From: a virus
Reading direction: 5' to 3' (one strand)
Virus record (IMG/VR): IMGVR_UViG_3300029905_000012
DNA: 46,191 nt
Positions 1 to 46,191 of the stretch are shown here, in pieces. The notes below the pieces were generated by a model. That model was not told the origin of the DNA. It did not search any database and saw only the letters and a program-made list of their open reading frames with translations. The position numbers and the translations under genes were made by a program. Within the stretch, counting starts at the first letter, position 1, and the number at the start of each line of letters is the position of its first letter.

Positions 1-99
1 AATGCAAAATTTACTGTTGGTGCTGATAAACAGTTTTGGAATCTACCAAATAATTCCGCGCTGAATGTTATGGAATTATATGGGATGCAATATGTTTAT
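1..99. repeat. Terminal direct repeat, copy 1 of 2 (identical to 46093..46191)
   Basis: Bases 1-99 (aatgcaaaatttactgttgg...gcaatatgtttat) recur exactly as the last 99 bases. The contig therefore closes on itself, with a unique length of about 46,092 bp. Confidence 0.95.
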
Positions 100-17530: not shown

Positions 17531-17604
17531 GCGGCGGTAGCTCAATGCAGAGCGGCGGTCTCCAAAACCGCGGGCTGCAGGTTCGACTCCTGCCCGTCGT
17601 GCCA
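17531..17604 (+). tRNA. tRNA-Trp: tRNA-Trp (anticodon CCA)
   Basis: Manual fold: acceptor gcggcgg/ccgtcgt (two G-U pairs), D-arm gctc-aatgca-gagc, anticodon arm gcggt-ctCCAaa-accgc, variable loop gggct, T-arm gcagg-ttcgact-cctgc, discriminator G, encoded CCA. It is close to E. coli tRNA-Trp in the anticodon and T arms. Confidence 0.9.
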
Positions 17605-33610: not shown

Positions 33611-34760
33611 CTGGGAGAGCGCGCTTGCAAATACCCCCGATATTTCCTTCATCGATGACCGCGGTGTGAATGATATCCGCAGCGAGATGGTCGCTGACTA
33701 TGAGACCTATATTTCCGCGGCCACTGGCGAGACTGTCACTCTTGACAGATCGAGCCCGCACCGGATGGAACTGTACGCTGCGGCCGACCAGATATACCAG
33801 GCGATGCAGTACATCGACCGGGCAGGCAAGCAAAACCTGCTCAAGTACAGCTATGGCGGGTTCCTCGACAACCTCGGCCTGTTCAAAGGAACGACCCGCA
33901 ACCAGGCGACAGCTGCTTCCACCACCATCCGGTTCACTCTGTCGGCAGAACGGCCCTCAGTTGTTTCTATTCCCAAGGGGACGCGGGTGGCGATGGAGGG
34001 CGTGATCTACTTTGCGACCGACGAATATGCCGAAATCCCCATCGGCGGGATGACCGTTGACGTTCCGGCTACCTGCACGGTGGCAGGGGAAGGAGGCAAC
34101 GGCTACGAGATAGGCGATCTGTCCACCATTGTGGACCCGGTGCCGTATGTGGCCAGCGCCAGCAACATCACACCCACCAGCGGCGGCGCAAACATCGAGA
34201 GTGATGAAAGCTACAAAGAGCGCATCTACCTTGCCCCCGGCGCCTATTCCACGGCGGGGCCCGAAGATTCCTACATCTACCATGCCAAGTCCTACAGCCC
34301 TGCGGTGGGCGACGTTGAAGTCACCAGCGACCAGGCTGCCGGAACCGTGGACGTGGTGTTCCTCATGACCGACGGCTCCAAGCCGAATGAAGATGCCATC
34401 GATGGGATGCTCGACTATCTGTCCGCCCGCAACCTGAGACCGATGACAGACCTAGTCCGGGTCGCCGCGCCAGATGAAGTGCCTTATACCATCGCCCTGA
34501 CTTACTACATCAACCGCAGCGACAGCGCCCGCGCTGTATCCATTCAGCAGAGCGTCACGGTAGCTGTCAGCGAATATGTATCCTGGCAGCGCACCATCGG
34601 CCGGGATATCAACCCGGACGAGCTGCGGGCCCGCATCATGGCCGCCGGCGCAAAGCGCATTGTGGTCACCGCGCCCACCTATACGGTGGTGCTCGGCACC
34701 AAAGTGGGCGTTTTGCAGGGTGATCCGTCCGTGAGTTACGGAGGGCTGGAAGATGATTGA
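33603..34760 (+). CDS. Baseplate J-like protein
   Basis: 385 aa. It has a GTG start and the typical size and position of a J-family protein. Confidence 0.8.
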   Translation: MLDWESALANTPDISFIDDRGVNDIRSEMVADYETYISAATGETVTLDRSSPHRMELYAAADQIYQAMQYIDRAGKQNLLKYSYGGFLDNLGLFKGTTRNQATAASTTIRFTLSAERPSVVSIPKGTRVAMEGVIYFATDEYAEIPIGGMTVDVPATCTVAGEGGNGYEIGDLSTIVDPVPYVASASNITPTSGGANIESDESYKERIYLAPGAYSTAGPEDSYIYHAKSYSPAVGDVEVTSDQAAGTVDVVFLMTDGSKPNEDAIDGMLDYLSARNLRPMTDLVRVAAPDEVPYTIALTYYINRSDSARAVSIQQSVTVAVSEYVSWQRTIGRDINPDELRARIMAAGAKRIVVTAPTYTVVLGTKVGVLQGDPSVSYGGLEDD

Positions 34761-35412
34761 ACTAAAAGGCAGTCTCTTTACCCAGATCATGCCGGACAAC
34801 CTGGCCAGCCAGGTTGAAACACAGGCGTTTGCCTATGCGCTGCACATCCAAATCGACAAGCTTCTGGCCTATGCAGATGCCTGCCGCAGCTATGCCGCCA
34901 TTGACACTGCGCCAGAGTTTTTGCTGGATTATCTGGCTGTGGAGCTGCGGACACCGGCCTACCGCGAAACATACCCCATCGAGACCAAACGAGACCTGGT
35001 CAAGGCATCGCTGCTCTTCTATTGCAAGATGGGCACGCCCTGGGCGGTTGAACGGCTTATGAGAGCTATATTCGGTGGCGGCCACATCGCTGAGTGGTAT
35101 GAGTACGACGGCGAGCCGCACCACTTCCGGGCAACCATCGAAACTTCCGCTGGCATCAGTCAGGAGGACGTGCGCGAATTTTGGCTCATCCTTGCCTCAG
35201 TCAAGCGTCTGTCATCCTGGTTGGATGATATCACGACCGTGACTGAGATGACCACCGAACCGCCCATCCACATTGGGACGGCAATGTGCGGCACCGTCAT
35301 GGAAACCACACTCCCGCCGGCCTATGTGGATGTGCAAGCCATCCTCTATGTGGGAGCTGCGCAGTGCGGCACCATTATGCAGACCGTGCTGCCGAACATC
35401 AAGGAGGGATAA
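34753..35412 (+). CDS. Baseplate/tail protein gpI-like (XkdU-like)
   Basis: 219 aa. LPDYLAVEL...Y......KR.L...S...Y..KGT resembles the P2 gpI family. Confidence 0.7.
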   Translation: MIELKGSLFTQIMPDNLASQVETQAFAYALHIQIDKLLAYADACRSYAAIDTAPEFLLDYLAVELRTPAYRETYPIETKRDLVKASLLFYCKMGTPWAVERLMRAIFGGGHIAEWYEYDGEPHHFRATIETSAGISQEDVREFWLILASVKRLSSWLDDITTVTEMTTEPPIHIGTAMCGTVMETTLPPAYVDVQAILYVGAAQCGTIMQTVLPNIKEG

Positions 35413-35413
35413 C

Positions 35414-36415
35414 ATGGCAAATATCTATGGTTTTACAAGCCCGACTGCCGGCCGTGAATTGATTGCGGGTCTGCTTGCAGGAGAGACCCTGACCATCACC
35501 AAGGTGATGGTGGGCACCGGCAAACCCGAAAATCTGGACCAGATGGCGGCGCTGACGGATCTGATCTCGCCGATGGCTTACGCGACGTCCACAACCCCGG
35601 TCCATTCCGGGAGCACTGTGACCATGACCATCGAGTACCGTTCCGACCTCAACGGATCACTGGCGGCAGGTTTTTACCTCAACGAATACGGCGTCTTCGC
35701 CAAAACCGAGACGTCCGAAGAGACCCTGATTTATTACGGCAGTCTGGGCGACTATCCGCAGTGGGTCAACGCCTATAGCCCTGGCCAGCCCCCGGATATC
35801 CGCCGCTTTCCCATTACCATCGTAGTGGCGGACGAGGTCAACGTCAACGTGCAGTACACGGCAGATGCCTTCATCACCGCCGAAGAAGCTGAAGCCCTGC
35901 TGAAAAGCATGATTGATGGTGTGGTCGGCGCCTCCGATGTGGTGGGCATCACCATCCCCGCCTCCGCGTGGGTGCCGGGAGGAACCGGGCTGTATCACTA
36001 CCAGGCGGATGTTGCCTGCGCGTTGGCACTGGCTACACACTTCCCGGTGGCATCTCTGCACGATGATGCCCTGGGCACTGCGGCGGCAGCCGGTGTTGCC
36101 CCTATCATGCAGACATTTGCAGGCAGCGCACGCTTCTATGCGCAGGCCATCCCGGCCGACGATATGAACGCCACACTGGCCCTTATCTCGGGCAGCGAAG
36201 AGCACCCCGGCGACGGCCGCGGCATCGTCAACATGGGCAACACCATGCGAGTCAACGTCCCCGGCGGCGTTGCGGGCCTTGACGAAGACGGCAAAGTCCT
36301 GCCGAGCGTGCTGCCGGATGATATGACCGGCGGCTTCATTCAATACACCGGCCAGTTCCCGGCCAGCCCGAAGCCCAACACGCTCTACGGCGAGACTCTC
36401 GCGGATTATACCTGA
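35414..36415 (+). CDS. Tail fibre protein 1
   Basis: ATG 35414 follows AAGGAGGG. The N-terminus MANIYGFTSPTAGRELIAGLLAGETLTITKVMVG is typical of fibre proteins that attach next to gpI-like proteins. Confidence 0.7.
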   Translation: MANIYGFTSPTAGRELIAGLLAGETLTITKVMVGTGKPENLDQMAALTDLISPMAYATSTTPVHSGSTVTMTIEYRSDLNGSLAAGFYLNEYGVFAKTETSEETLIYYGSLGDYPQWVNAYSPGQPPDIRRFPITIVVADEVNVNVQYTADAFITAEEAEALLKSMIDGVVGASDVVGITIPASAWVPGGTGLYHYQADVACALALATHFPVASLHDDALGTAAAAGVAPIMQTFAGSARFYAQAIPADDMNATLALISGSEEHPGDGRGIVNMGNTMRVNVPGGVAGLDEDGKVLPSVLPDDMTGGFIQYTGQFPASPKPNTLYGETLADYT

Positions 36416-36416
36416 C

Positions 36417-36683
36417 ATGGAAGATCGGATCGAATTCTCCCGCCCTATGAGCGAGGTGAGCTGTATTGTCGGCAATCTTTTTGCGGAGCTCGACCCGCCC
36501 TGCGGTGTGAGCGGCGGCCGGAAAGATGTACTGACCATTTTTGGCAGAACACGAGCCACCGGCGACTGCGCCGTCCTGCGAGTGTACGCAGACCGCTGCG
36601 TATACACCGGGCCGCCCGACGACCTCGAAGCGGCGATGGGCGGATGCTGCCCGGAGAAGGGAGGCTGCCCAAATGGGGAATAA
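36417..36683 (+). CDS. Hypothetical Cys-containing protein (88 aa)
   Basis: It starts 1 nt after the fibre stop and overlaps the avd start by 11 nt. Confidence 0.5.
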   Translation: MEDRIEFSRPMSEVSCIVGNLFAELDPPCGVSGGRKDVLTIFGRTRATGDCAVLRVYADRCVYTGPPDDLEAAMGGCCPEKGGCPNGE

Positions 36684-37212
36684 CGCGAAAGACCTGCTGC
36701 TTGCGGCCAAAGCCAGAGACCTGCTGATCTACACCCGCAAAAAGACAAAACCTGTCAACAGCGACGTGGACGCGCGAGACGTGGCAAAGCTGCTGCGCCG
36801 GATCGCCGAGCTGGACGACCTGGGCAAGGCCCGGGAGGTCTGCACAGCCACCGCAGGCGCGCTCAAAAAGCGCAGCAAAGATGGATTCTCCAAGGTTGCG
36901 TTCCGGGATTTTGGCCAGGATATGCGGGATATCACAAAAGATATCCTGCGCGGCATCTATGCAGCCAACAACATACCGTTTGCGGCTGAGCCTGAGCGGC
37001 GCATCGCCCTGATCGACGAGGTGCTGAATAACGCCGCACTGCTGCTGGAGTACATCTCCATCTGCAAAGAAGCTGAAATCATCAGCGCGCAGACCGCCGG
37101 CATCTGGTCCGGCAAGGCAGTGGACGTCAAGCGCATGGCTGCAAGCTGGCGCATCAACAGCGCCCAAAGGGCACAGGCCCTTAAAACCAAAGGGTGTACG
37201 CGGCAGGGATGA
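36673..37212 (+). CDS. avd: DGR accessory variability determinant (Avd-like four-helix-bundle protein)
   Basis: ATG 36673 follows GAAGGGAGG. AKDLLLAAKARDLLIYT.. and ..ILRGIYAANNIP...ERRIALIDEVLNNAALLLEYISICKEAEIISAQT....GKAVDVKRMAASW fit the Avd/S23-like helix pattern. It is immediately upstream of TR and RT. Confidence 0.7.
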   Translation: MGNNAKDLLLAAKARDLLIYTRKKTKPVNSDVDARDVAKLLRRIAELDDLGKAREVCTATAGALKKRSKDGFSKVAFRDFGQDMRDITKDILRGIYAANNIPFAAEPERRIALIDEVLNNAALLLEYISICKEAEIISAQTAGIWSGKAVDVKRMAASWRINSAQRAQALKTKGCTRQG

Positions 37213-37249
37213 CACCCTGCCGCTTGCGTTAGGGAATGGCCCGTAACGG

Positions 37250-37379
37250 CCCCGCCCGTGCCTGGTCCCGGTCGCCGAACCTCAACAACAACAACGACAA
37301 CAACAACGTCTGTACGGTGGAGGCGGACGGCGATGCGAACAACTGGAACTGCAACAATTCTTATGCGGTCGCGCCCGCT
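37250..37379 (+). repeat. DGR template repeat (TR)
   Basis: The TR is 130 nt and intergenic, with 13 AAC codons plus 1 AAT in register. It matches 39273..39399 except at TR adenines and for one 3-nt length difference. Confidence 0.9.
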
Positions 37380-37587
37380 CCGATGAACGCGAGATCGAGT
37401 AACGCCGCGCCGCGCGGCGCGAAAGCAGAACACATCATCAAAGGGGGCCTATTTCCTGTTGAATGCCTGCCGCTTGTTGCAGGCGGACGACAAACACATC
37501 GCACCGAGGCCGACGCCCACTGTGTGAGCGCAGCGGCTGCCGCGAAAGCGGGCCGGTGCTGGGTCCTTGCATCAACGCGGGACAAAC

Positions 37588-38769
37588 ATGACATACGAAG
37601 AAATTTGCGACTTTGAGACGCTTTACACCGCCTACCTTGCAGCCCGCAAAGGCAAGCGGAAAAAGCGGAGAACGCTTGAGTTCGAGGAGAACCTGCTCGA
37701 AAACCTGAAAGACATTTCGGACGACCTGTCAAACGGCGTTTATCAGCCTGGGGAGTTTGAGCGCTTCAAAATTTTCGAGCCGAAGGAACGGGACATCGAA
37801 GCCCCGGCATTTAAGGATAAGGTTATTCTGCACGCCGTCGCAGACAATGGTCTGTACGATGCCATCACGTCCAGCTTTGTGCGGAATAACTGCGCGAACC
37901 AGCGCGGAAAGGGCACCGCAGACGCCGTAATCAGGCTGAAACAGTGCTTTGTGCGCTACTACGCGCAGTATAAGACTGCCGATGGCTGGATTTTGAAGTG
38001 CGACATCCGGCATTTCTTTGCCAGCATCGACCACGACATTCTGAAAGCAAAACTGCGGAAAGTCGCCAGAAAACACGACATCGACCCGCGCATTTATGAC
38101 CTGCTGTGCGTCTACATCGACAAGGCAGAGGGCCTGCCGCTGGGCTATCAAACCTCGCAGCTGTTTGCCTTGCTGATGCTGGACGCCCTCGATCATTACA
38201 TCGAGGAGGAGCTGGGTTTTCGGTTCCACGTGCGGGGCATGGATGATTTTGTGGTGCTTGCACCGACCAAAGAAGACGCCGTGCGGCTGCTGGATACTAT
38301 CCGAAAAGCTGTCCATGACAGCAAACTCGAACTTAACAAGAAAACGGCCATCTTCCCCATGCGCAACGGCGTGGATTTTCTGGGCTACCGCACCTATCTG
38401 ACCGAGACGGGCGCGGTGGTTCAGAAGCTGCGCAAAAGCTCCATCCAGCGCATCCGAAAGCGCATCAAACGCTGGCGGCACGACTACGCAGAGGGAAAGA
38501 TCACAGCCGAAAAGATCAAAAGCAGCTTTTTGGCGTGGGATGCCCACGCGGCTTTTGGGGACACCTACGCTTTGAGGCAGAAATACGCGAAGGAGGTGGG
38601 CGAAATTATCGGGGAGCCGATAAGAATCCACAAAAAGATCAATTCGACGCGCATCCAAAGGGAGAAGCGCCGGGAAAAGCAGTACCGCTGCATCGAAGCA
38701 AAGCGCAAGCGCCAATTTGCCATGCAGGCAGGGTACAGCAAACCCGGAGTTCCCCCATGGAGCGAATAA
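37588..38769 (+). CDS. DGR-type reverse transcriptase
   Basis: RT motifs seen: FEPKERDIEAPAFKDKVILHAV, NCANQRGKGTADAV, KCDIRHFFASIDHDIL, LPLGYQTSQLFALLML (the DGR-typical (I/L)GxxxSQ motif) and RGMDDFVVLA. The start is ATG 37588, or 37567. Confidence 0.9.
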   Translation: MTYEEICDFETLYTAYLAARKGKRKKRRTLEFEENLLENLKDISDDLSNGVYQPGEFERFKIFEPKERDIEAPAFKDKVILHAVADNGLYDAITSSFVRNNCANQRGKGTADAVIRLKQCFVRYYAQYKTADGWILKCDIRHFFASIDHDILKAKLRKVARKHDIDPRIYDLLCVYIDKAEGLPLGYQTSQLFALLMLDALDHYIEEELGFRFHVRGMDDFVVLAPTKEDAVRLLDTIRKAVHDSKLELNKKTAIFPMRNGVDFLGYRTYLTETGAVVQKLRKSSIQRIRKRIKRWRHDYAEGKITAEKIKSSFLAWDAHAAFGDTYALRQKYAKEVGEIIGEPIRIHKKINSTRIQREKRREKQYRCIEAKRKRQFAMQAGYSKPGVPPWSE

Positions 38770-38784
38770 GAAAGGAAGGTGTAT

Positions 38785-41766
38785 ATGCCGACTGTAAAAC
38801 TCGGTACAAAATCCGTCGGGAGCATCATAAAACTGAATGAGCTCGGGAGGCCTGCAAACTATATCATCATTCAGCAGGGGCTCCCGTCCTCCGGAAACTA
38901 TGATGCGAGCTGCAACGGCACCTGGGTGCGCCGTCAGAGCGCCGTGGCAGAAAAAGAATGGGATAGTTCCAATAACGATTACGCAAATTCCGACATACAC
39001 TCGTGGCTGAATAACACCTATAGTGGATTTCTGGCCATGTTGGATGACGACATCCACTCCCAGGGCGTCCTGAATGTAAAAATCCCTTACAGACCCGGCA
39101 GCGGTATGAGCAGTACTGTCAACAGTGGCTCGCGCGGCTTGAGCTGCCGTGCGTTCCTGCTGTCCATGTTGGAGGTTGGACTTACTCCGGGATACAGCCC
39201 GAGAGAAGGCGCCACTCTCTCCTATTTTTCGAGCGGGGGTGCATCCAGGCGAATCGTCAACTACAATGGTTCCCCCGCCCGTGCCTGGTCCCGGTCGCCG
39301 GACCTCGGCGCCGACGACGGCAGCGTCGTCTGTGCGGTGGAGGCGGACGGCGGTGCGGACTACTGGGGCTGCTACGATTCTTATGCGGTCGCGCCCGCTT
39401 TGATCCTGAACTCTGATCTCTGGGTCTCTGACGACGGCACACTCTCGATCAACCAGCCCCCCAGCGCCCCGTCGAGCATCGCAGCCAGCAACGTGATCGG
39501 CAACCAGAACGCCACCGTGACCCTCGGCGCAGCGACCGATGAGGATGGGACCATCGCCAACTACATCTACGAGCGGCAGGTGGACGGCGGCAGGTGGACG
39601 CAGTTTGCGAGCACCAGCAGCCTGAGCGTTACCGACAGCATCAACGACAGCTGGACGACCGTGACCTACCGCGCCAAGGCGGTGGACAACCTGGGCGCAG
39701 AGGGCCCGTATGCGACCAGTCAGGCATACACCGTCGTGCACAACCAGCCGCCGACGGCCCCGGGGTCCATTAACGCGACCAACGTTGTGGGCGGCCAGGA
39801 TGCGACGATCACCATCACGGCGGCCACCGACCCCGACGGCACGGTGGAGAGCTATGTGTATGAGCGCAGCGTGGACGATTCGTCGCACTGGGACATTATC
39901 GCCACCACCAGCGCTCTGAGCACCACCGATACCATCAGCAGCGAGTGGGGCACGGTGGCCTACCGGGCGAAGGCTGTCGACGACGACGGCGCGTCCGGCC
40001 CCTATGTGACCAGCGAGCAGTACGACGTCAACGTCGGATGGGTGCTGATTGGCGGCCCCAGCACCGCAATGGGTCAGCAGATCAAGCCTTTCACCCTGAG
40101 CGCCAACATCGGCGTTTCTGGCCAGACCGGCGTCACCGGCATCGCCGTGACCGGCTACCTGGACGGGAAAAAAGTCCTGGATACGACCATCAACCAGAAT
40201 GACAACGCCGAAATCTACGTCGACACCCGCATCCTTGCCAGCGGTCAGCACACCATCCAGATGACGGCCGAAAAGACCGACCTGCTGCCCGCCAACAAGG
40301 CGTGGCAGTTCGCCATCCCGTTCAATGCCCTGCCGGACGGCGGCAAGGCCGAACAGCTGAGGGACGAACAGGGGAACCCCATCTTCCCGCGCACCACCTC
40401 GCAGCAGGTCATCGGCAAGAACGGCCTGCCGGTCCAGAACGACCTTGACAACATCGAGAAGCGGTTCAGTGGTCTGACCGGGCATCTGGAGCCCGTCGAT
40501 GCGGTGTTCCTCGGCACGGCAGGCGCACAGACCGAGCTCCCGCGCGAGAGCGGCGTCCATTACTGCTTCGGCGTGTACAGCACAGCAGGAAGTACAAACT
40601 TTACGATGGCACTTATCTCGGCTGGAAGTAGTGCTTCCAAAACACTTGACGGCAATGTGACGATTGGAGCAAGCACCGATAAGTTTATTGTCTCGCTCAA
40701 CGGTAGCAATGCAGCTATTGTGCAGTATTTCAAGTTCGTGGTGGACTCTGAGGCAGAGATCGTGACCAACCCTGTCGCCCTGTTCACCGCGCTGGAGCAG
40801 CCGCACGTCTTCTCGGCCAGCGGCGGCAGCACGTCCAGCGTGACCAGCCAGACCGAGGCGCTGCAGACCATCATCGCGGACAACGCAAACCACAACTACT
40901 ACGTGCTGACGGGCACCGACGGTACCAAGTACTACATCGCAGCGCAGGACGTCATCCAGCCGAGCACCGGCAGCTTTACCGGGCCCGTGTACCAGGACGA
41001 CCAGGGCACCACGCTGTATGCGGGACGGACGTTGACGATGGTGGACACCTCCAACGTGGCCGCGCTGTTCCAGCCGCTGGCCGCGACCGTCTACGACGTG
41101 ACCACGCAGGGCACGAGCGTAAGCGCGGGCTCGAACATCAACGAGACGCTGCTGGCCATGATCGAGGCGCAGCCGACCTGGCACCGGTACGCCATTCCCG
41201 GTTCGGGCGGCGAGACCTACTACGTCCTGAGCGAGGCCGTTATCTCACCGGACGCCATGAACGCGCCCGACGTTTACTACTGCACCGACGGCAGCACCTA
41301 CTACACCGGCGGGACGCTGCTGTTGCTTGCCATCGGCAACGTCGGCGACATCATGACCTTTGCGGGCCAGCAGTGGATTATCTCCCACAAGACCGCATCG
41401 GAAGCCTACCTGACGCTGAATGGTCTGTCTGGCAACTCGACTTGGTATGACTTGGACAGCACCTGTCAGACTTGGGAAAACAATCATCTGAATGAAACGC
41501 AGAAAGCCATCCTGAAAACCATTACCGCAGACAGTACATCCGGTTTCGTATTCGTTGCCACCAAAGATCAAATGGACGGTGGTTTTAGCTACTTTAACAG
41601 TAATAGTAGGAGAAGCGTAGGTGACTATTACTGGATTTCTAGCGAGTATTCCTCGGACAGCGCGTGGAGCGTGCGCTACGATGGGTACCTCAACGGCTAC
41701 TACGACGACAAGTCGAGCTCGATCGGGTTCCGCCCGTCCATCTGCATCGACCTGACCAAGCTGTAA
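38785..41766 (+). CDS. DGR target protein: N-terminal lectin-fold (DUF6273-like) domain carrying VR, two FN3/Ig-like repeats, long beta-rich region, C-terminal non-variable paralogous domain
   Basis: ATG 38785 follows AAAGGAAGG (the track start GTG 38779 is also possible). The VR encodes ..ARAWSRSPDLGADDGSVVCAVEADGGADYWGCYDSYAVAPAL.. The C-terminus ..YYWISSEYSSDSAWSVRYDGYLNGYYDDKSSSIGFRPSICIDL shows the same fold signature. Confidence 0.85.
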   Translation: MPTVKLGTKSVGSIIKLNELGRPANYIIIQQGLPSSGNYDASCNGTWVRRQSAVAEKEWDSSNNDYANSDIHSWLNNTYSGFLAMLDDDIHSQGVLNVKIPYRPGSGMSSTVNSGSRGLSCRAFLLSMLEVGLTPGYSPREGATLSYFSSGGASRRIVNYNGSPARAWSRSPDLGADDGSVVCAVEADGGADYWGCYDSYAVAPALILNSDLWVSDDGTLSINQPPSAPSSIAASNVIGNQNATVTLGAATDEDGTIANYIYERQVDGGRWTQFASTSSLSVTDSINDSWTTVTYRAKAVDNLGAEGPYATSQAYTVVHNQPPTAPGSINATNVVGGQDATITITAATDPDGTVESYVYERSVDDSSHWDIIATTSALSTTDTISSEWGTVAYRAKAVDDDGASGPYVTSEQYDVNVGWVLIGGPSTAMGQQIKPFTLSANIGVSGQTGVTGIAVTGYLDGKKVLDTTINQNDNAEIYVDTRILASGQHTIQMTAEKTDLLPANKAWQFAIPFNALPDGGKAEQLRDEQGNPIFPRTTSQQVIGKNGLPVQNDLDNIEKRFSGLTGHLEPVDAVFLGTAGAQTELPRESGVHYCFGVYSTAGSTNFTMALISAGSSASKTLDGNVTIGASTDKFIVSLNGSNAAIVQYFKFVVDSEAEIVTNPVALFTALEQPHVFSASGGSTSSVTSQTEALQTIIADNANHNYYVLTGTDGTKYYIAAQDVIQPSTGSFTGPVYQDDQGTTLYAGRTLTMVDTSNVAALFQPLAATVYDVTTQGTSVSAGSNINETLLAMIEAQPTWHRYAIPGSGGETYYVLSEAVISPDAMNAPDVYYCTDGSTYYTGGTLLLLAIGNVGDIMTFAGQQWIISHKTASEAYLTLNGLSGNSTWYDLDSTCQTWENNHLNETQKAILKTITADSTSGFVFVATKDQMDGGFSYFNSNSRRSVGDYYWISSEYSSDSAWSVRYDGYLNGYYDDKSSSIGFRPSICIDLTKL
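39273..39399 (+). repeat. DGR variable repeat (VR)
   Basis: 127 nt. By manual alignment there are 19 substitutions relative to TR, all at TR adenine positions, and one AAC codon fewer. Confidence 0.9.
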
Positions 41767-41778
41767 GGGGGTGAGCGT

Positions 41779-42411
41779 ATGTACATTTTGAGAGACACAC
41801 CGAGCGCAGAGGGCCAGTATGAGGCCATCCAACAGACCACGCAGCAGATGCCGCCTCCTGGGTACGTCTGGTGGCCTGATTCTCTGGAACGGAACACCTT
41901 CGCTCAGTATGATGGCTTCATTGTACCGGTGATTGCGCGCAAGACTGTCAAGAGCTATACGCCGAACGTGGAGGGCTTTCAGGCCCACCAGAAAGACCTT
42001 CTGACCCTGTGCAAGGCTGAGCGTATCGCAGACAGCAAGACGGAGTTAGCGGCCTATCTGCTGGCGCATCCGATGCAGTGGACAGACGGAAAGTATTATT
42101 CCATCACGGCGGAAAAACAGCAGCAGCTTACCTCGAAAATCATGAGCGCGACTATGGCCCAGACCATGAGCGTTCCGTATAATCTGACATGGAACAGCAC
42201 CGGTGACGAATGCACGACCTGGACGCTGCCCGATCTGTCCTCCCTGGCGTTTGCGATTGACGCCCGCGTTACGTCTCTGGTCAGCTACCAGCAGGAAAAA
42301 GAGGTCGAAATGCAGAATGCCGCAACGATGGATGATCTGGAAGCGATCACCGTCGATTACGATTCCGTGCCCCTCCCTGCTGCATCCACGAACGGCGGTG
42401 AGCAGGCGTGA
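41779..42411 (+). CDS. DUF4376-like protein (fibre-associated)
   Basis: 210 aa. ..AERIADSKTELAAYLLAHPMQWTDGKYYSIT.EKQQQL..., ..W......C..W.. and L..LA.AI fit the DUF4376 pattern seen after fibre genes. Confidence 0.55.
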   Translation: MYILRDTPSAEGQYEAIQQTTQQMPPPGYVWWPDSLERNTFAQYDGFIVPVIARKTVKSYTPNVEGFQAHQKDLLTLCKAERIADSKTELAAYLLAHPMQWTDGKYYSITAEKQQQLTSKIMSATMAQTMSVPYNLTWNSTGDECTTWTLPDLSSLAFAIDARVTSLVSYQQEKEVEMQNAATMDDLEAITVDYDSVPLPAASTNGGEQA

Positions 42412-42842
42412 AAACCGCTTTGAAGTGCGCAGCCCTCGCAGCCAGCGGGGGCTGTCTCTATGTTGTGCTTGAGCTGATCGTAAGAGGCCGGAGCCACTGG
42501 ACGATGTTCGTATTGGGCGGGCTCAGTTTCTTCCTGATCGGGCTTATCAATGAGCTGTTCCCCTGGGGGATGCCGCTGGCCCTGCAAGGTCTGGTCGGCT
42601 CTGTCTGCATTGTTACACCGCTGGAGTTCGTAACGGGATGTATCGTCAATCTGTGGCTGGGCTGGGATGTCTGGGATTATTCCAACCTTCCGTTTAACGT
42701 CATGGGGCAAATCTGCCTGCCGTTTTCGCTGCTCTGGGTGCTGGTGGCCATGGCCGCCGCCGTCCTGGATGACTGGCTGCGGTACTGGCTGTTCCAAGAG
42801 CCTCGGCCCCATTACACCCTCTGGCACTGGGGGGAGGTGTAA
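42408..42842 (+). CDS. Polytopic membrane protein (CmpB/DUF1113-like)
   Basis: 144 aa with 4 hydrophobic segments. WDYS..PFN..G.ICL.FSL.W is typical of this family. Confidence 0.6.
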   Translation: MKTALKCAALAASGGCLYVVLELIVRGRSHWTMFVLGGLSFFLIGLINELFPWGMPLALQGLVGSVCIVTPLEFVTGCIVNLWLGWDVWDYSNLPFNVMGQICLPFSLLWVLVAMAAAVLDDWLRYWLFQEPRPHYTLWHWGEV

Positions 42843-42845
42843 CCA

Positions 42846-43313
42846 ATGGACTTTAAAGCATCCGACCTTTTGCCCATGCTGCCGCCGGTCCTGGTGGCCC
42901 TGCTGAGCCTGGTGGAGGTGTCACCCATCAAGATCAACCCCTGGTCCGGCCTTGCCAAATGGCTGGGGCGGGCCATCAATGGCGAGGTGCTGGAATCCGT
43001 TGCAGAAGCCAAAAAGGCCCAGAAAGAGACCCGCAGGGCCCTGGATGAGCACATCCGGGCGGACGATGAACGCAACGCGGATACGCTGCGGATGCGCATC
43101 CTGCATTTCAACAACGAACTGCTGCGGGGCGACCGGCACACGCGGGAAGATTTTATCGAAATCCTGGCCGTCATTGACGCCTACGAACAGTATTGCAAAA
43201 ATCACCCCGATTACCGCAACAACCGGGCCAGCCATGCCATTGCCAATATTGGCCGGGTGTATGACGACCGGCTGAAACTGCGGGACTTTTTGGGGGAAAG
43301 GGAGGATGGATAA
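42846..43313 (+). CDS. N-terminally membrane-anchored protein, lysis-associated (possible holin-like)
   Basis: 155 aa with one N-terminal TM segment (LLPMLPPVLVALLSLV). It lies directly upstream of the endolysin, with the stop and start abutting. Confidence 0.45.
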   Translation: MDFKASDLLPMLPPVLVALLSLVEVSPIKINPWSGLAKWLGRAINGEVLESVAEAKKAQKETRRALDEHIRADDERNADTLRMRILHFNNELLRGDRHTREDFIEILAVIDAYEQYCKNHPDYRNNRASHAIANIGRVYDDRLKLRDFLGEREDG

Positions 43314-43939
43314 TGCAGACCAGCGGAATCGACGTATCGAAGTATCAGGGCAAGATTGATTGGGCTGCGGTCAAGGCCAGCGGCAAGGCCGCTTTTGCCA
43401 TCATTCGGGCAGGCTATGGCCGGGCAATCAAGCAGATTGACCCGTTCTTTGCGGACAATTACAAGGGCTGCAAGGCCGTTGGAATGCCCGTTGGCGCTTA
43501 CTGGTACAGTTACGCCACCGACACGGAAAGCGCCCGGAACGAGGCGAAAACCTGCCTGGAAGCCATTCGGGACAAGCAGTTTGAATACCCTGTGTGGTTT
43601 GACCAGGAGTATGAGCCGCGCATCAAGGCCCTGACCGACCAGCAGCGCACCGATATCGTCAAGGCGTTCTGCGAGACGCTGGAAGCCGCCGGTTACTATA
43701 CCGGCCTGTATTGCAGCCGTGACTGGCTGACAAACTATCTGCTTTCCGGCCAGCTGAAAGCCTATGACGTATGGGTGGCCGCTTATGGGTCTGACCCCGG
43801 CAAAGTCCCCCTGCCTTATGGCATGTGGCAGTACAGCAGCAAAGGGCGCGTGCCGGGCATTTCCGGCAATGTAGACCTTGATATTGCTTACAAGGATTAC
43901 CCCGCCATTATCAAAGGCGCGCACCTGAACGGCTTTTGA
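43313..43939 (+). CDS. Endolysin, GH25 muramidase
   Basis: GIDVSKYQGKIDWAAVKASG..FAIIRAGYG.., GAYWYSYA and WQYSSKGRVPGISGNVDLD are GH25 signatures. Confidence 0.9.
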   Translation: MQTSGIDVSKYQGKIDWAAVKASGKAAFAIIRAGYGRAIKQIDPFFADNYKGCKAVGMPVGAYWYSYATDTESARNEAKTCLEAIRDKQFEYPVWFDQEYEPRIKALTDQQRTDIVKAFCETLEAAGYYTGLYCSRDWLTNYLLSGQLKAYDVWVAAYGSDPGKVPLPYGMWQYSSKGRVPGISGNVDLDIAYKDYPAIIKGAHLNGF

Positions 43940-45776: not shown

Positions 45777-46191
45777 AGCAGTTAGTTTTCGAACAGGAAG
45801 TAGTTTAACCACGATACCTAAAGGAAGCAAAAGTATATCCTTAACAGAAGCGGTTACTGGTATATTTATAGAAATTGCAGAAGGAAATACTATTGACTTT
45901 GAAGGAACATTTGGTATCTTTGATGATTATACCAACTTCCAAATTAGCACCCCCAACGGCTTGCCCAGTATCTCTGTTGATTGGGGCGGGAATTATACTG
46001 ATGCGAGCGGGCAGCGAAAATGGGTGGACATTATTGATTACAACAACGAAAAAAAGTATCAGTATATAAATGAAGTTGTTGTTGACGGGACAAATGCAAA
46101 ATTTACTGTTGGTGCTGATAAACAGTTTTGGAATCTACCAAATAATTCCGCGCTGAATGTTATGGAATTATATGGGATGCAATATGTTTAT
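45700..46191 (+). CDS. Tail fibre protein 2, distal part (3'-partial in window; continues at 1..492)
   Basis: Frame 1 is open from 45700 to the window end and on through 1..492. A protein-like sequence starts around 45739 (SGQVGAISCDSPFEAVSFRTGSS...). There is no RBS before ATG 45700. Confidence 0.6.
   Translation, partial: MVRLILIQVHQISGQVGAISCDSPFEAVSFRTGSSLTTIPKGSKSISLTEAVTGIFIEIAEGNTIDFEGTFGIFDDYTNFQISTPNGLPSISVDWGGNYTDASGQRKWVDIIDYNNEKKYQYINEVVVDGTNAKFTVGADKQFWNLPNNSALNVMELYGMQYVY
46093..46191. repeat. Terminal direct repeat, copy 2 of 2 (identical to 1..99)
   Basis: Exact 99-base identity with the window start. Confidence 0.95.

Follow-up and report, generated by a model that had tools for sequence, protein, structure and literature searches.

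An apparently active diversity-generating retroelement with a tentaclin-like target gene in a 46-kb phage genome

The virus record IMGVR_UViG_3300029905_000012 from IMG/VR, of which positions 1-46191 form the window analysed here and the frame for all coordinates, carries with little room for doubt a complete diversity-generating retroelement (DGR). It consists of avd, the template repeat (TR) and the gene for a reverse transcriptase (RT), with the target gene directly downstream. Judging from sequence comparisons, the element is very probably active: the variable repeat (VR) within the target departs from the TR at adenines only, and related elements continue to diverge from one another at the same kind of position. 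A first-pass annotation, made from the letters alone, had placed four contiguous DGR parts here, and its coordinates hold. The open reading frames (ORFs) 36673-37212, 37588-38769 and 38785-41766 are co-directional and intact, and the last starts 15 nucleotides (nt) past the RT stop codon. The cassette has architecture B1 (avd-TR-RT) in the scheme of the 2018 DGR survey (PMC5758913). Its parts are as follows.

36673..37212 (+), avd, 179 amino acids (aa)
37200..37234 (+), hairpin and TAGGG motif
37250..37379 (+), TR, 130 nt
37380..37587 (+), TR-to-RT spacer RNA (Sp-like)
37588..38769 (+), DGR reverse transcriptase, 393 aa
38785..41766 (+), target gene, 993 aa, tentaclin-like
38785..39429 (+), N-terminal DUF6273 domain of the target, which carries the VR
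39273..39399 (+), VR, 127 nt
39385..39411 (+), 3' boundary resembling an initiation of mutagenic homing (IMH) site
40809..41745 (+), 312-aa C-terminal extension of the target
41338..41763 (+), second DUF6273-like domain, at the target C-terminus

Adenine-specific variation in the window and its relatives

TR and VR form the only long direct repeat in the region. Trying a 3-nt gap at every possible position, we obtained best alignments with 19 substitutions, none of them at a TR base other than A, and with the one gap free to lie anywhere within the AAC runs. The first-pass annotation had counted the same 19 adenine substitutions, listed the codon changes correctly, and described the identical blocks at the two ends (28 nt at the 5' end, 21 nt at the 3' end) as we find them; the gap, which reflects a TR of 130 nt against a VR of 127 nt, went unmentioned. 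The TR holds 32 adenines and the VR 11. By simple arithmetic, the chance that 19 of 19 substitutions would fall on A is ~0.246^19, or ~3e-12. Throughout the 46-kb window there are exactly two copies each of the 21-nt 3' block and of a 29-nt central block (A replaced by N), against an expectation of 0 from shuffled sequence, and a search with these two blocks found no second VR there. The comparison of the repeats thus supports the signature of adenine-specific mutagenic retrohoming that had been proposed for them.

All 19 A-containing TR codons (12 AAC, one AAT and six others) are in frame with the target ORF. None of these variable codons can mutate to a stop, and ~8e18 protein variants are possible. 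The VR corresponds to target codons 164-205, where 14 residues differ from those that the TR encodes. The TR copies a coding segment and so reads as an ORF itself, 126 aa long in the window (37236-37616). Two annotation artefacts in Faecalibacterium phages touch the same region: the TR of FP_Toutatis is annotated as a 'DUF6273 domain-containing protein' coding sequence (L026:2202-2354; L numbers denote related loci), and the 'Avd' coding sequence of FP_Brigit (L006:4971-5765) is drawn over the small upstream ORF plus the TR.

The 3' ends of the repeats have the features of an IMH-like site in the VR and an IMH*-like site in the TR. Variation among the VRs reaches no further 3' than the A at TR offset 113, and the last 16 nt contain no A. 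VR and TR have in common a GC-rich 14-mer, GCGGTCGCGCCCGC, followed by TTGATCCTGAAC in the VR and by CCGATGAACGCG, the IMH* equivalent, in the TR. Past the 14-mer the flanks diverge from the first base (TTGATCC after the VR, CCGATGA after the TR). The difference just past CCGCT, a C in the TR and a T in the VR, recurs in FP_Brigit, L008, L030 and L034. From sequence, the shared 14-mer and its diverging flanks would mark the boundary of homing.

Because the TR is 3 nt longer than the VR, their alignment requires a one-codon gap in the AAC run (37284-37307 against 39307-39327). The usual TR length in four relatives is 127 nt, from which we conclude that the window TR has gained one AAC; it differs from the canonical TR by this extra codon and one A>G change. 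The mismatch reflects either growth of the TR since homing last took place or slippage by the RT. Length differences between TR and VR were found in 7% of DGRs in the 2018 survey, 74% of them adjoining AAC, and were put down to slippage; in-frame gaps adjoining AAC occurred in ~4% (PMC5758913).

Do relatives of the element diversify? A DNA pattern consisting of the constant ends and a variable gap retrieved four related elements on four contigs (L001 from IMG/VR; L002+L004, L003 and L005 from metagenomes), with 90-96% nt identity over 8-9 kb. Three of them have an identical 127-nt TR, and all five VRs, including that of the window, are different. Among these five, 27 of the 30 variable VR columns lie at a TR adenine, as do 80 of the 82 substitutions relative to the canonical TR. 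The VR is accordingly not invariant, and the polymorphism expected of related contigs is there.

The sharpest comparison is that of a sister element with 58% identity in Avd, which was reached by way of Avd homologues. Its two copies, L034 and L036, come from different sequencing runs. Over 2803 nt they have 22 differences, every one of them in the 125-nt VR and at a TR adenine. Two sequences that are identical except at 22 such positions require very recent activity. Together these comparisons are strong evidence, drawn from sequence, that diversification in the lineage is under way or very recent.

The TR itself is not constant in the group. Its length changes by one codon between the window (130 nt) and the canonical form (127 nt), and likewise between L032 and L030, and in L003 (L003:1001-1127, ERZ1090878 NODE-123) the TR differs from the canonical TR by 12 changes, all at adenines (7 A>G, 4 A>T, 1 A>C). 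This TR keeps the TR-specific flanks, and the L003 VR is not derivable from it (9 non-A mismatches). A mutagenised cDNA or a copy of the VR may possibly have overwritten the TR; an assembly artefact or chimera is the alternative.

Length differences between TR and VR in the AAC runs are present in 6 of the 11 members of the window's own clade, which is defined below by a GMDD motif in its RT, and in 1 of 8 relatives with Y or F in that motif (Fisher p = 0.15, not significant). The VR is the shorter repeat in the window (by 3 nt), L001 (6), L028 (3), L029 (3), L030 (3) and L032 (6), and the frequency in the clade is far above the base rate of the 2018 survey. L027 is also among the elements with an in-frame TR/VR length difference. 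One member, L029 (630-4240), looks to be decaying: its RT ORF has 258 aa, its target is split into short ORFs, and its VR has a 1-nt insertion relative to the TR.

The reverse transcriptase, Avd and the DGR RNA

The RT belongs, on sequence evidence, with the RTs of DGRs, as the first-pass annotation had it. It matches Pfam RVT_1 (E 9.8e-15) and PHROG 1423 (E 2e-114). Its best PDB sequence match is 8ub7_A, the DGR RT of phage BPP-1 (E 8.6e-32), and the next is a group II intron RT (1.5e-11); the Foldseek entry for 8ub7 reads 'Diversity-generating retroelement ribonucleoprotein reverse transcriptase'. Motif 4 is LGYQTSQ, which aligns with IGSLTSQ of the BPP-1 enzyme (bRT). Among the 150 nearest cluster representatives, drawn from a library of 1.8 billion proteins, all 127 with a readable motif 4 have [LIVM]GxxxSQ. 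In NCBIfam, which holds no DGR RT model, the scores for group II intron, Drt3a, retron and Abi models are far below their cut-offs (for group II, 100 against 300 bits).

The catalytic core appears intact. KCDIRHFF of the RT aligns with KSDFSKFF of bRT, and the MDD of motif 5 is kept. Motif 5 (38236-38250) reads RGMDD, whereas relatives have RYMDD and, in one case, RFMDD. GMDD is found in the window, L001, L003-L005 and L028-L036, that is, in the whole clade down to 60% RT identity (P0254/L028), and among the 150 nearest representatives it is confined to the two closest clusters; 112 have Y at the same position. Conservation to 60% identity means that GMDD is not a recent lesion. Moreover, L034 and L036 carry GMDD and differ only in the VR at TR adenines, so the GMDD enzyme is evidently functional. 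On sequence grounds glycine for tyrosine is a clade-wide variant in which the aspartates are retained. A limited literature search found nothing on an RT variant of this type.

Upstream of the TR lies an ORF that, like the annotation before us, we assign to avd. Its product matches PHROG 3206, 'Avd protein of DGR' (E 7.6e-20). AlphaFold, given 13 homologues, models the product as a helical bundle (mean predicted local distance difference test score, pLDDT, 74), in which an insertion of ~45 aa at aa 28-72 is of low confidence. Foldseek places this model with 4dwl (BPP-1 Avd), 8ub7_B (Avd in the DGR ribonucleoprotein) and 2rld (a family member), with probabilities of 0.96-1.0 and template modelling (TM) scores, normalized to the target, of 0.68-0.79. 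The isoelectric point (pI) is 9.76, close to the mean of 9.5 given for DGR Avd proteins (PMC5758913). The PHROG match, the modelled fold and the pI together support a divergent basic Avd protein at 36673..37212.

Predicted RNA structure flanks the TR. A perfect 9-bp hairpin, GCGGCAGGG/CCCTGCCGC, spans the avd stop codon and is followed by a conserved TAGGG ~16 nt 5' of the TR. Relatives have, as read from their sequences, a hairpin of different sequence and then an invariant GGG in the same place before the TR. The avd-end hairpin and TAGGG are probably the 5' part of the DGR RNA.

On the other side of the TR, the spacers of seven diverse relatives (RT identity down to ~50%) have common sequence blocks, and RNAalifold predicts for them 26 base pairs, 19 of which are backed by compensatory changes. 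Pairing is possible in 91.6% of cells against 74.8% in shuffles (0 of 500 reach the observed value), and controls with slid partners give 31-56%. In helix 1, 37378-37385 pairs with 37436-37443: the last 2 nt of the TR and its specific flank pair with the conserved CAUCAAAG at spacer positions 57-64. L028 preserves this helix by a double compensatory change, from GAUG/CAUC to AAUA/UAUU. The other spacer helices are 37458-37462/37487-37491, 37501-37506/37554-37559 and 37508-37512/37534-37538. The global fold energy of the avd-end, TR and spacer RNA is no better than that of shuffles (z 0.33), and it is only comparative analysis that reveals the structure in the spacer.

Helix 1 has a counterpart in BPP-1, where pairing of TR U118 with Sp A56 and priming from Sp A56 have been demonstrated experimentally, and where templating begins at a base in the TR end that is rich in GC and free of A (PMC6182149). 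By analogy, we infer that cDNA synthesis in the window element is primed from an A of CAAAGG at 37440-37442 and initiated within GCGCCCGC, near 37377-37378.

These elements suggest a cycle of diversification. The cassette would be transcribed along with the late operon, and an RT-Avd complex would bind the structured RNA made up of the avd-end hairpin, the 130-nt TR and ~180 nt of folded spacer. Synthesis of cDNA would begin in the A-free, GC-rich 3' end of the TR, with an adenosine of the conserved CAAAGG motif, which pairs with the sequence immediately 3' of the TR, as its probable primer. The RT would be faithful at C, G and U and would insert random bases opposite A. The cDNA would then replace the VR in the target gene, with the 14-mer and the VR-specific flank as 3' boundary and the 28-nt A-free block as 5' homology. 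In this way up to 19 residues on the strands and loops of a DUF6273 lectin-like head could be recoded, always free of stops, and occasional slippage in the AAC runs would alter the number of codons.

The target protein and rival readings

From its N-terminus, the target protein consists of a DUF6273 domain, two FN3-like repeats, a middle region and, as C-terminal extension, a further 312 aa. Pfam detects DUF6273 at aa 56-209 (E 2e-19), and the protein matches PHROG 10993, 'Hoc-like head decoration' (E 5e-84). The region at aa 224-412 is weakly similar to tandem FN3 domains of titin (E 0.008), and a match to PHROG 21129 also supports the two FN3-like repeats. An AlphaFold model of aa 1-230 has a pLDDT of 91.5 and a predicted TM score of 0.90. 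Foldseek against BFVD retrieves DUF6273 phage proteins for this head (E 2e-25, TM up to 0.91), and its structural neighbours include proteins named tail-collar fibre and receptor-binding protein. The VR maps onto strands and loops of the modelled head at aa 167-208, including the hairpin 181-185/191-195. Its predicted lectin fold follows the literature, in which DUF6273 is C-type-lectin-like. N-terminal and internal VRs are rare but known (PMC5758913).

The C-terminal extension is present in the window and in L005 and absent from L001 and L003, whose targets have 679 aa. Pfam, PHROG and PDB sequence searches with the extension came back empty, and BLASTP of the N-terminal against the C-terminal target domain found nothing. 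Profile-profile comparison (hhalign) does connect the last 142 aa with the N-terminal DUF6273 family (probability 77%, E 2e-5, 146 columns, including the strands equivalent to the VR). Many metagenomic proteins contain this DUF6273-like domain at 50-65% identity, which makes it a widespread module. It is not diversified in the window, where nothing matches as its TR.

We describe the target as a tentaclin-like adhesin. Tentaclins are phage proteins with an N-terminal C-type lectin (C-lec)/DUF6273 head that carries the VR, followed by immunoglobulin (Ig)-like domains (Babkin and co-workers 2023, PMC10743442). It is safer to call the target tentaclin-like, because the size of 993 aa and the extra C-terminal DUF6273-like domain exceed the core definition. 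The first-pass annotation had the phage diversify a receptor-binding protein. A receptor-binding role is plausible, and the protein itself is better described as a tentaclin or 'Hoc-like' adhesin.

It is also possible, though we hold it to be the less probable case, that the diversified protein is a 'Hoc-like' adhesin displayed on the capsid or tail that binds mucus, glycans or other ligands, so that the DGR tunes adherence and not host range. The PHROG 10993 match points this way, as do the like annotation of the FP_Brigit and FP_Toutatis homologues and the FN3/Ig-like repeats. The tentaclin paper leaves open whether bacterial receptors or intestinal or immune cells are bound (PMC10743442), and the phage has a separate conventional tail-fibre gene upstream (35408-36415; PHROG 7037, E 2e-34). 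Yet the gene is part of the tail-fibre/baseplate module and is followed directly by a DUF4376 fibre-like gene and the lysis genes, its BFVD neighbours are named tail-collar fibre and receptor-binding protein, and the 'Hoc-like' label is based on the Ig-like repeats only.

A number of observations weigh against a complete and working DGR with this target. Sequence searches of Pfam, NCBIfam and the PDB gave no match for Avd, and the Foldseek E-values of its model are weak (0.04-1.4). The RT lacks the tyrosine of YXDD, which taken alone casts doubt on its activity. The present 127-nt VR is not a gap-free copy of the present 130-nt TR. No hairpin or cruciform was found within 80 nt 3' of the VR; the DNA fold of 39375-39480 has -9.1 kcal/mol (z +1.55), and 191 of 200 shuffles fold at least as well. 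Such a structure follows the VR in many DGRs but not all, and is an optional, non-defining feature. Foldseek of the target head against the PDB gave no significant match, only weak C-type lectin fragments. Finally, activity is read from comparison between contigs and not from variation within a population.

Some of these points would suit a cassette that was inactivated recently, with homing ended by the GMDD change or by the TR/VR length mismatch. The 3-nt excess of the window TR, the Y found in 112 nearest representatives where the window has GMDD, and the decay of the clade member L029, with its short RT and 1-nt VR insertion, can all be read in this sense. We consider such a fossil very unlikely. 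GMDD persists down to 60% RT identity (P0254/L028) and so is no recent lesion, all close GMDD relatives have differing VRs, L034 and L036 are identical save for 22 VR positions at TR adenines although both carry GMDD, and every ORF of the window cassette is intact. Still less credible is an ordinary diverged duplication or recombination beside an unrelated retron, group II intron or defence RT. The best NCBIfam scores do go to group II intron, Drt3a and retron models, in a collection that has no DGR model, but they are far under the cut-offs. The DGR RT is the best solved relative by 20 orders of magnitude, an SQ motif stands in place of the SP motif of group II introns and retrons, and Rfam detects no intron RNA or retron ncRNA. 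The adenine-specific pattern (19 of 19 substitutions in the window, 80 of 82 over the window and four relatives) and the affinities of the RT refute this reading.

An intact, apparently active DGR thus remains our preferred explanation, and within it the GMDD clade raises a further idea. A relaxed primer grip, brought about by the Gly of GMDD, could make the RT prone to slippage on AAC runs, with variation in loop length on top of adenine mutagenesis and occasional overwriting of the TR by mutagenised cDNA, as in L003. We think this rather unlikely. Long AAC runs alone are a sufficient alternative cause of frequent indels, and we claim no link between GMDD and indels, given p = 0.15 and the fact that in-frame AAC indels are already published.

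Genome context and comparison with known systems

The first and last 99 nt of the window (1-99 and 46093-46191) are identical, and the window is therefore a circularly closed phage assembly of 46,092 bp. The genome is that of a myovirus-like phage, and the DGR sits in it between a tail-fibre gene and the lysis genes. The neighbouring features are the following.

34753-35412, Tail_P2_I, myovirus-like tail gene
35408-36415, conventional tail fibre
36417..36683 (+), small acidic Cys-rich ORF, 88 aa (PHROG 21058, function unknown)
41779-42411, downstream ORF with a sub-threshold DUF4376 match and a weak tail-fibre match
42408-42842, small membrane-protein gene, ABC_trans_CmpB-like, possibly a holin
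43313-43939, GH25 endolysin
17531-17604, tRNA-Trp (CCA), the sole Rfam/ARAGORN match in the phage genome

The first-pass annotation had set the element between two fibres. Upstream there is a conventional tail-fibre gene; the 'second fibre' downstream has only the sub-threshold and weak matches listed above. With the membrane-protein gene and GH25 downstream, the DGR is placed at the junction of the tail and lysis modules. L001 and L003 pass from window position 42820 to window position 1117 with ~0.8 kb in place of ~4.5 kb of lysis-region genes. A scan for promoters and terminators found nothing above background, which is consistent with a cassette co-transcribed with the tail genes, and Rfam finds nothing in the cassette.

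The 88-aa ORF begins 2 nt past the tail-fibre stop codon and overlaps the start of avd by 11 nt. Its product has a pI of 4.6 and 7 Cys, and is 61-65% identical over the clade, with the Cys residues conserved. In the phage collection it occurs in DGR-bearing phages only (FP_Brigit, nd12 and MT837771), in the same spot; L028, Lelie and Toutatis have DGRs but lack it. We considered it as a fifth DGR component and did not adopt this view, as several related DGRs do without the ORF and its position would suit a tail-fibre accessory just as well. It may be a fibre accessory gene rather than part of the DGR.

Megablast of the cassette against 50,697 phage records gave zero nucleotide-level matches. 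The nearest relatives by protein are the Faecalibacterium phages FP_Brigit, FP_Toutatis and Lelie, together with unannotated human-gut contigs and phages nd4 and nd12. An exact-pattern scan of genome contigs found no prophage, and a protein-based scan of the genome collection found relatives at no more than 50% RT identity, in metagenome-assembled genomes of Clostridia/Oscillospiraceae. The GC content is ~60%. The closest relatives with cultured hosts infect Faecalibacterium, which may point to a host of this kind.

This type of DGR is already known from Faecalibacterium and other gut phages, as are N-terminal VRs and in-frame AAC indels, and no new mechanism is established by the RT with GMDD, the AAC tract prone to indels, the TR mutated at adenines in a relative or the target with two heads. 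What the window adds to the large set of gut-phage elements is one well-documented and evidently active DGR, along with a natural experiment in the form of near-identical contigs that differ at TR-adenine positions of the VR only. There is practical value in a natural, functional RT with Gly for the YXDD tyrosine, in frequent TR/VR length changes of one or two codons, in a relative's TR that bears the signature of adenine mutagenesis, and in a target whose two lectin-like heads are diversified in one case and fixed in the other. Through these side features, DGR fidelity, the protection of the template (IMH against IMH*) and the function of tentaclins become open to simple tests; current understanding is not overturned by any of them.

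The closest known counterparts are the cassettes of FP_Brigit (NC_047909), FP_Toutatis and phage Lelie. FP_Brigit has the gene order of the window: baseplate J, P2-I, tail fibre, the small ORF, Avd, TR, RT, a DUF6273 'Hoc-like' protein and lysis. In both, the TR precedes the RT, and the N-terminal part of the target holds the VR, ~2 kb downstream, with adenine-only mismatches, and both have the RT motif LGYQTSQ and the spacer RNA motifs. Protein identity is 55% for the RT and 38% for the target, over aa 1-494 of the window protein. FP_Brigit has RYMDD where the window has RGMDD, and its target ends at 617 aa, whereas that of the window has 993 aa and ends in the second DUF6273-like domain.

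Tentaclins resemble the target in that the VR lies in the C-terminal strands and loops of DUF6273, FN3/Ig-like repeats come next, and the gene belongs to a DGR cassette of a gut phage. Described phage tentaclins have 313-649 aa, in contrast to 993 aa and an extra C-terminal lectin-like domain here. The target corresponds to the single 'tentaclin-like' example in that work (BK023705, 830 aa; PMC10743442) and not to the core family.

The prototype BPP-1 element (mtd-avd-TR-brt) differs in layout. Its target lies upstream of the RT, with the VR at the C-terminus of Mtd, whereas the window target lies downstream and has its VR in the N-terminal DUF6273 domain. BPP-1 has a hairpin 3' of the VR, which is not detectable in the window; its Avd has 128 aa against 179 aa with an insertion, and its RT reads YMDD against GMDD. 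The two elements nevertheless have the same essentials: homologous RTs, an Avd-like protein, adenine-specific mutagenesis of an AAC-rich TR, a GC-rich 3' boundary with diverging IMH/IMH*-like flanks, and sequence at the 3' end of the TR that pairs with the spacer, as TR U118 does with Sp A56 in BPP-1 (PMC6182149).

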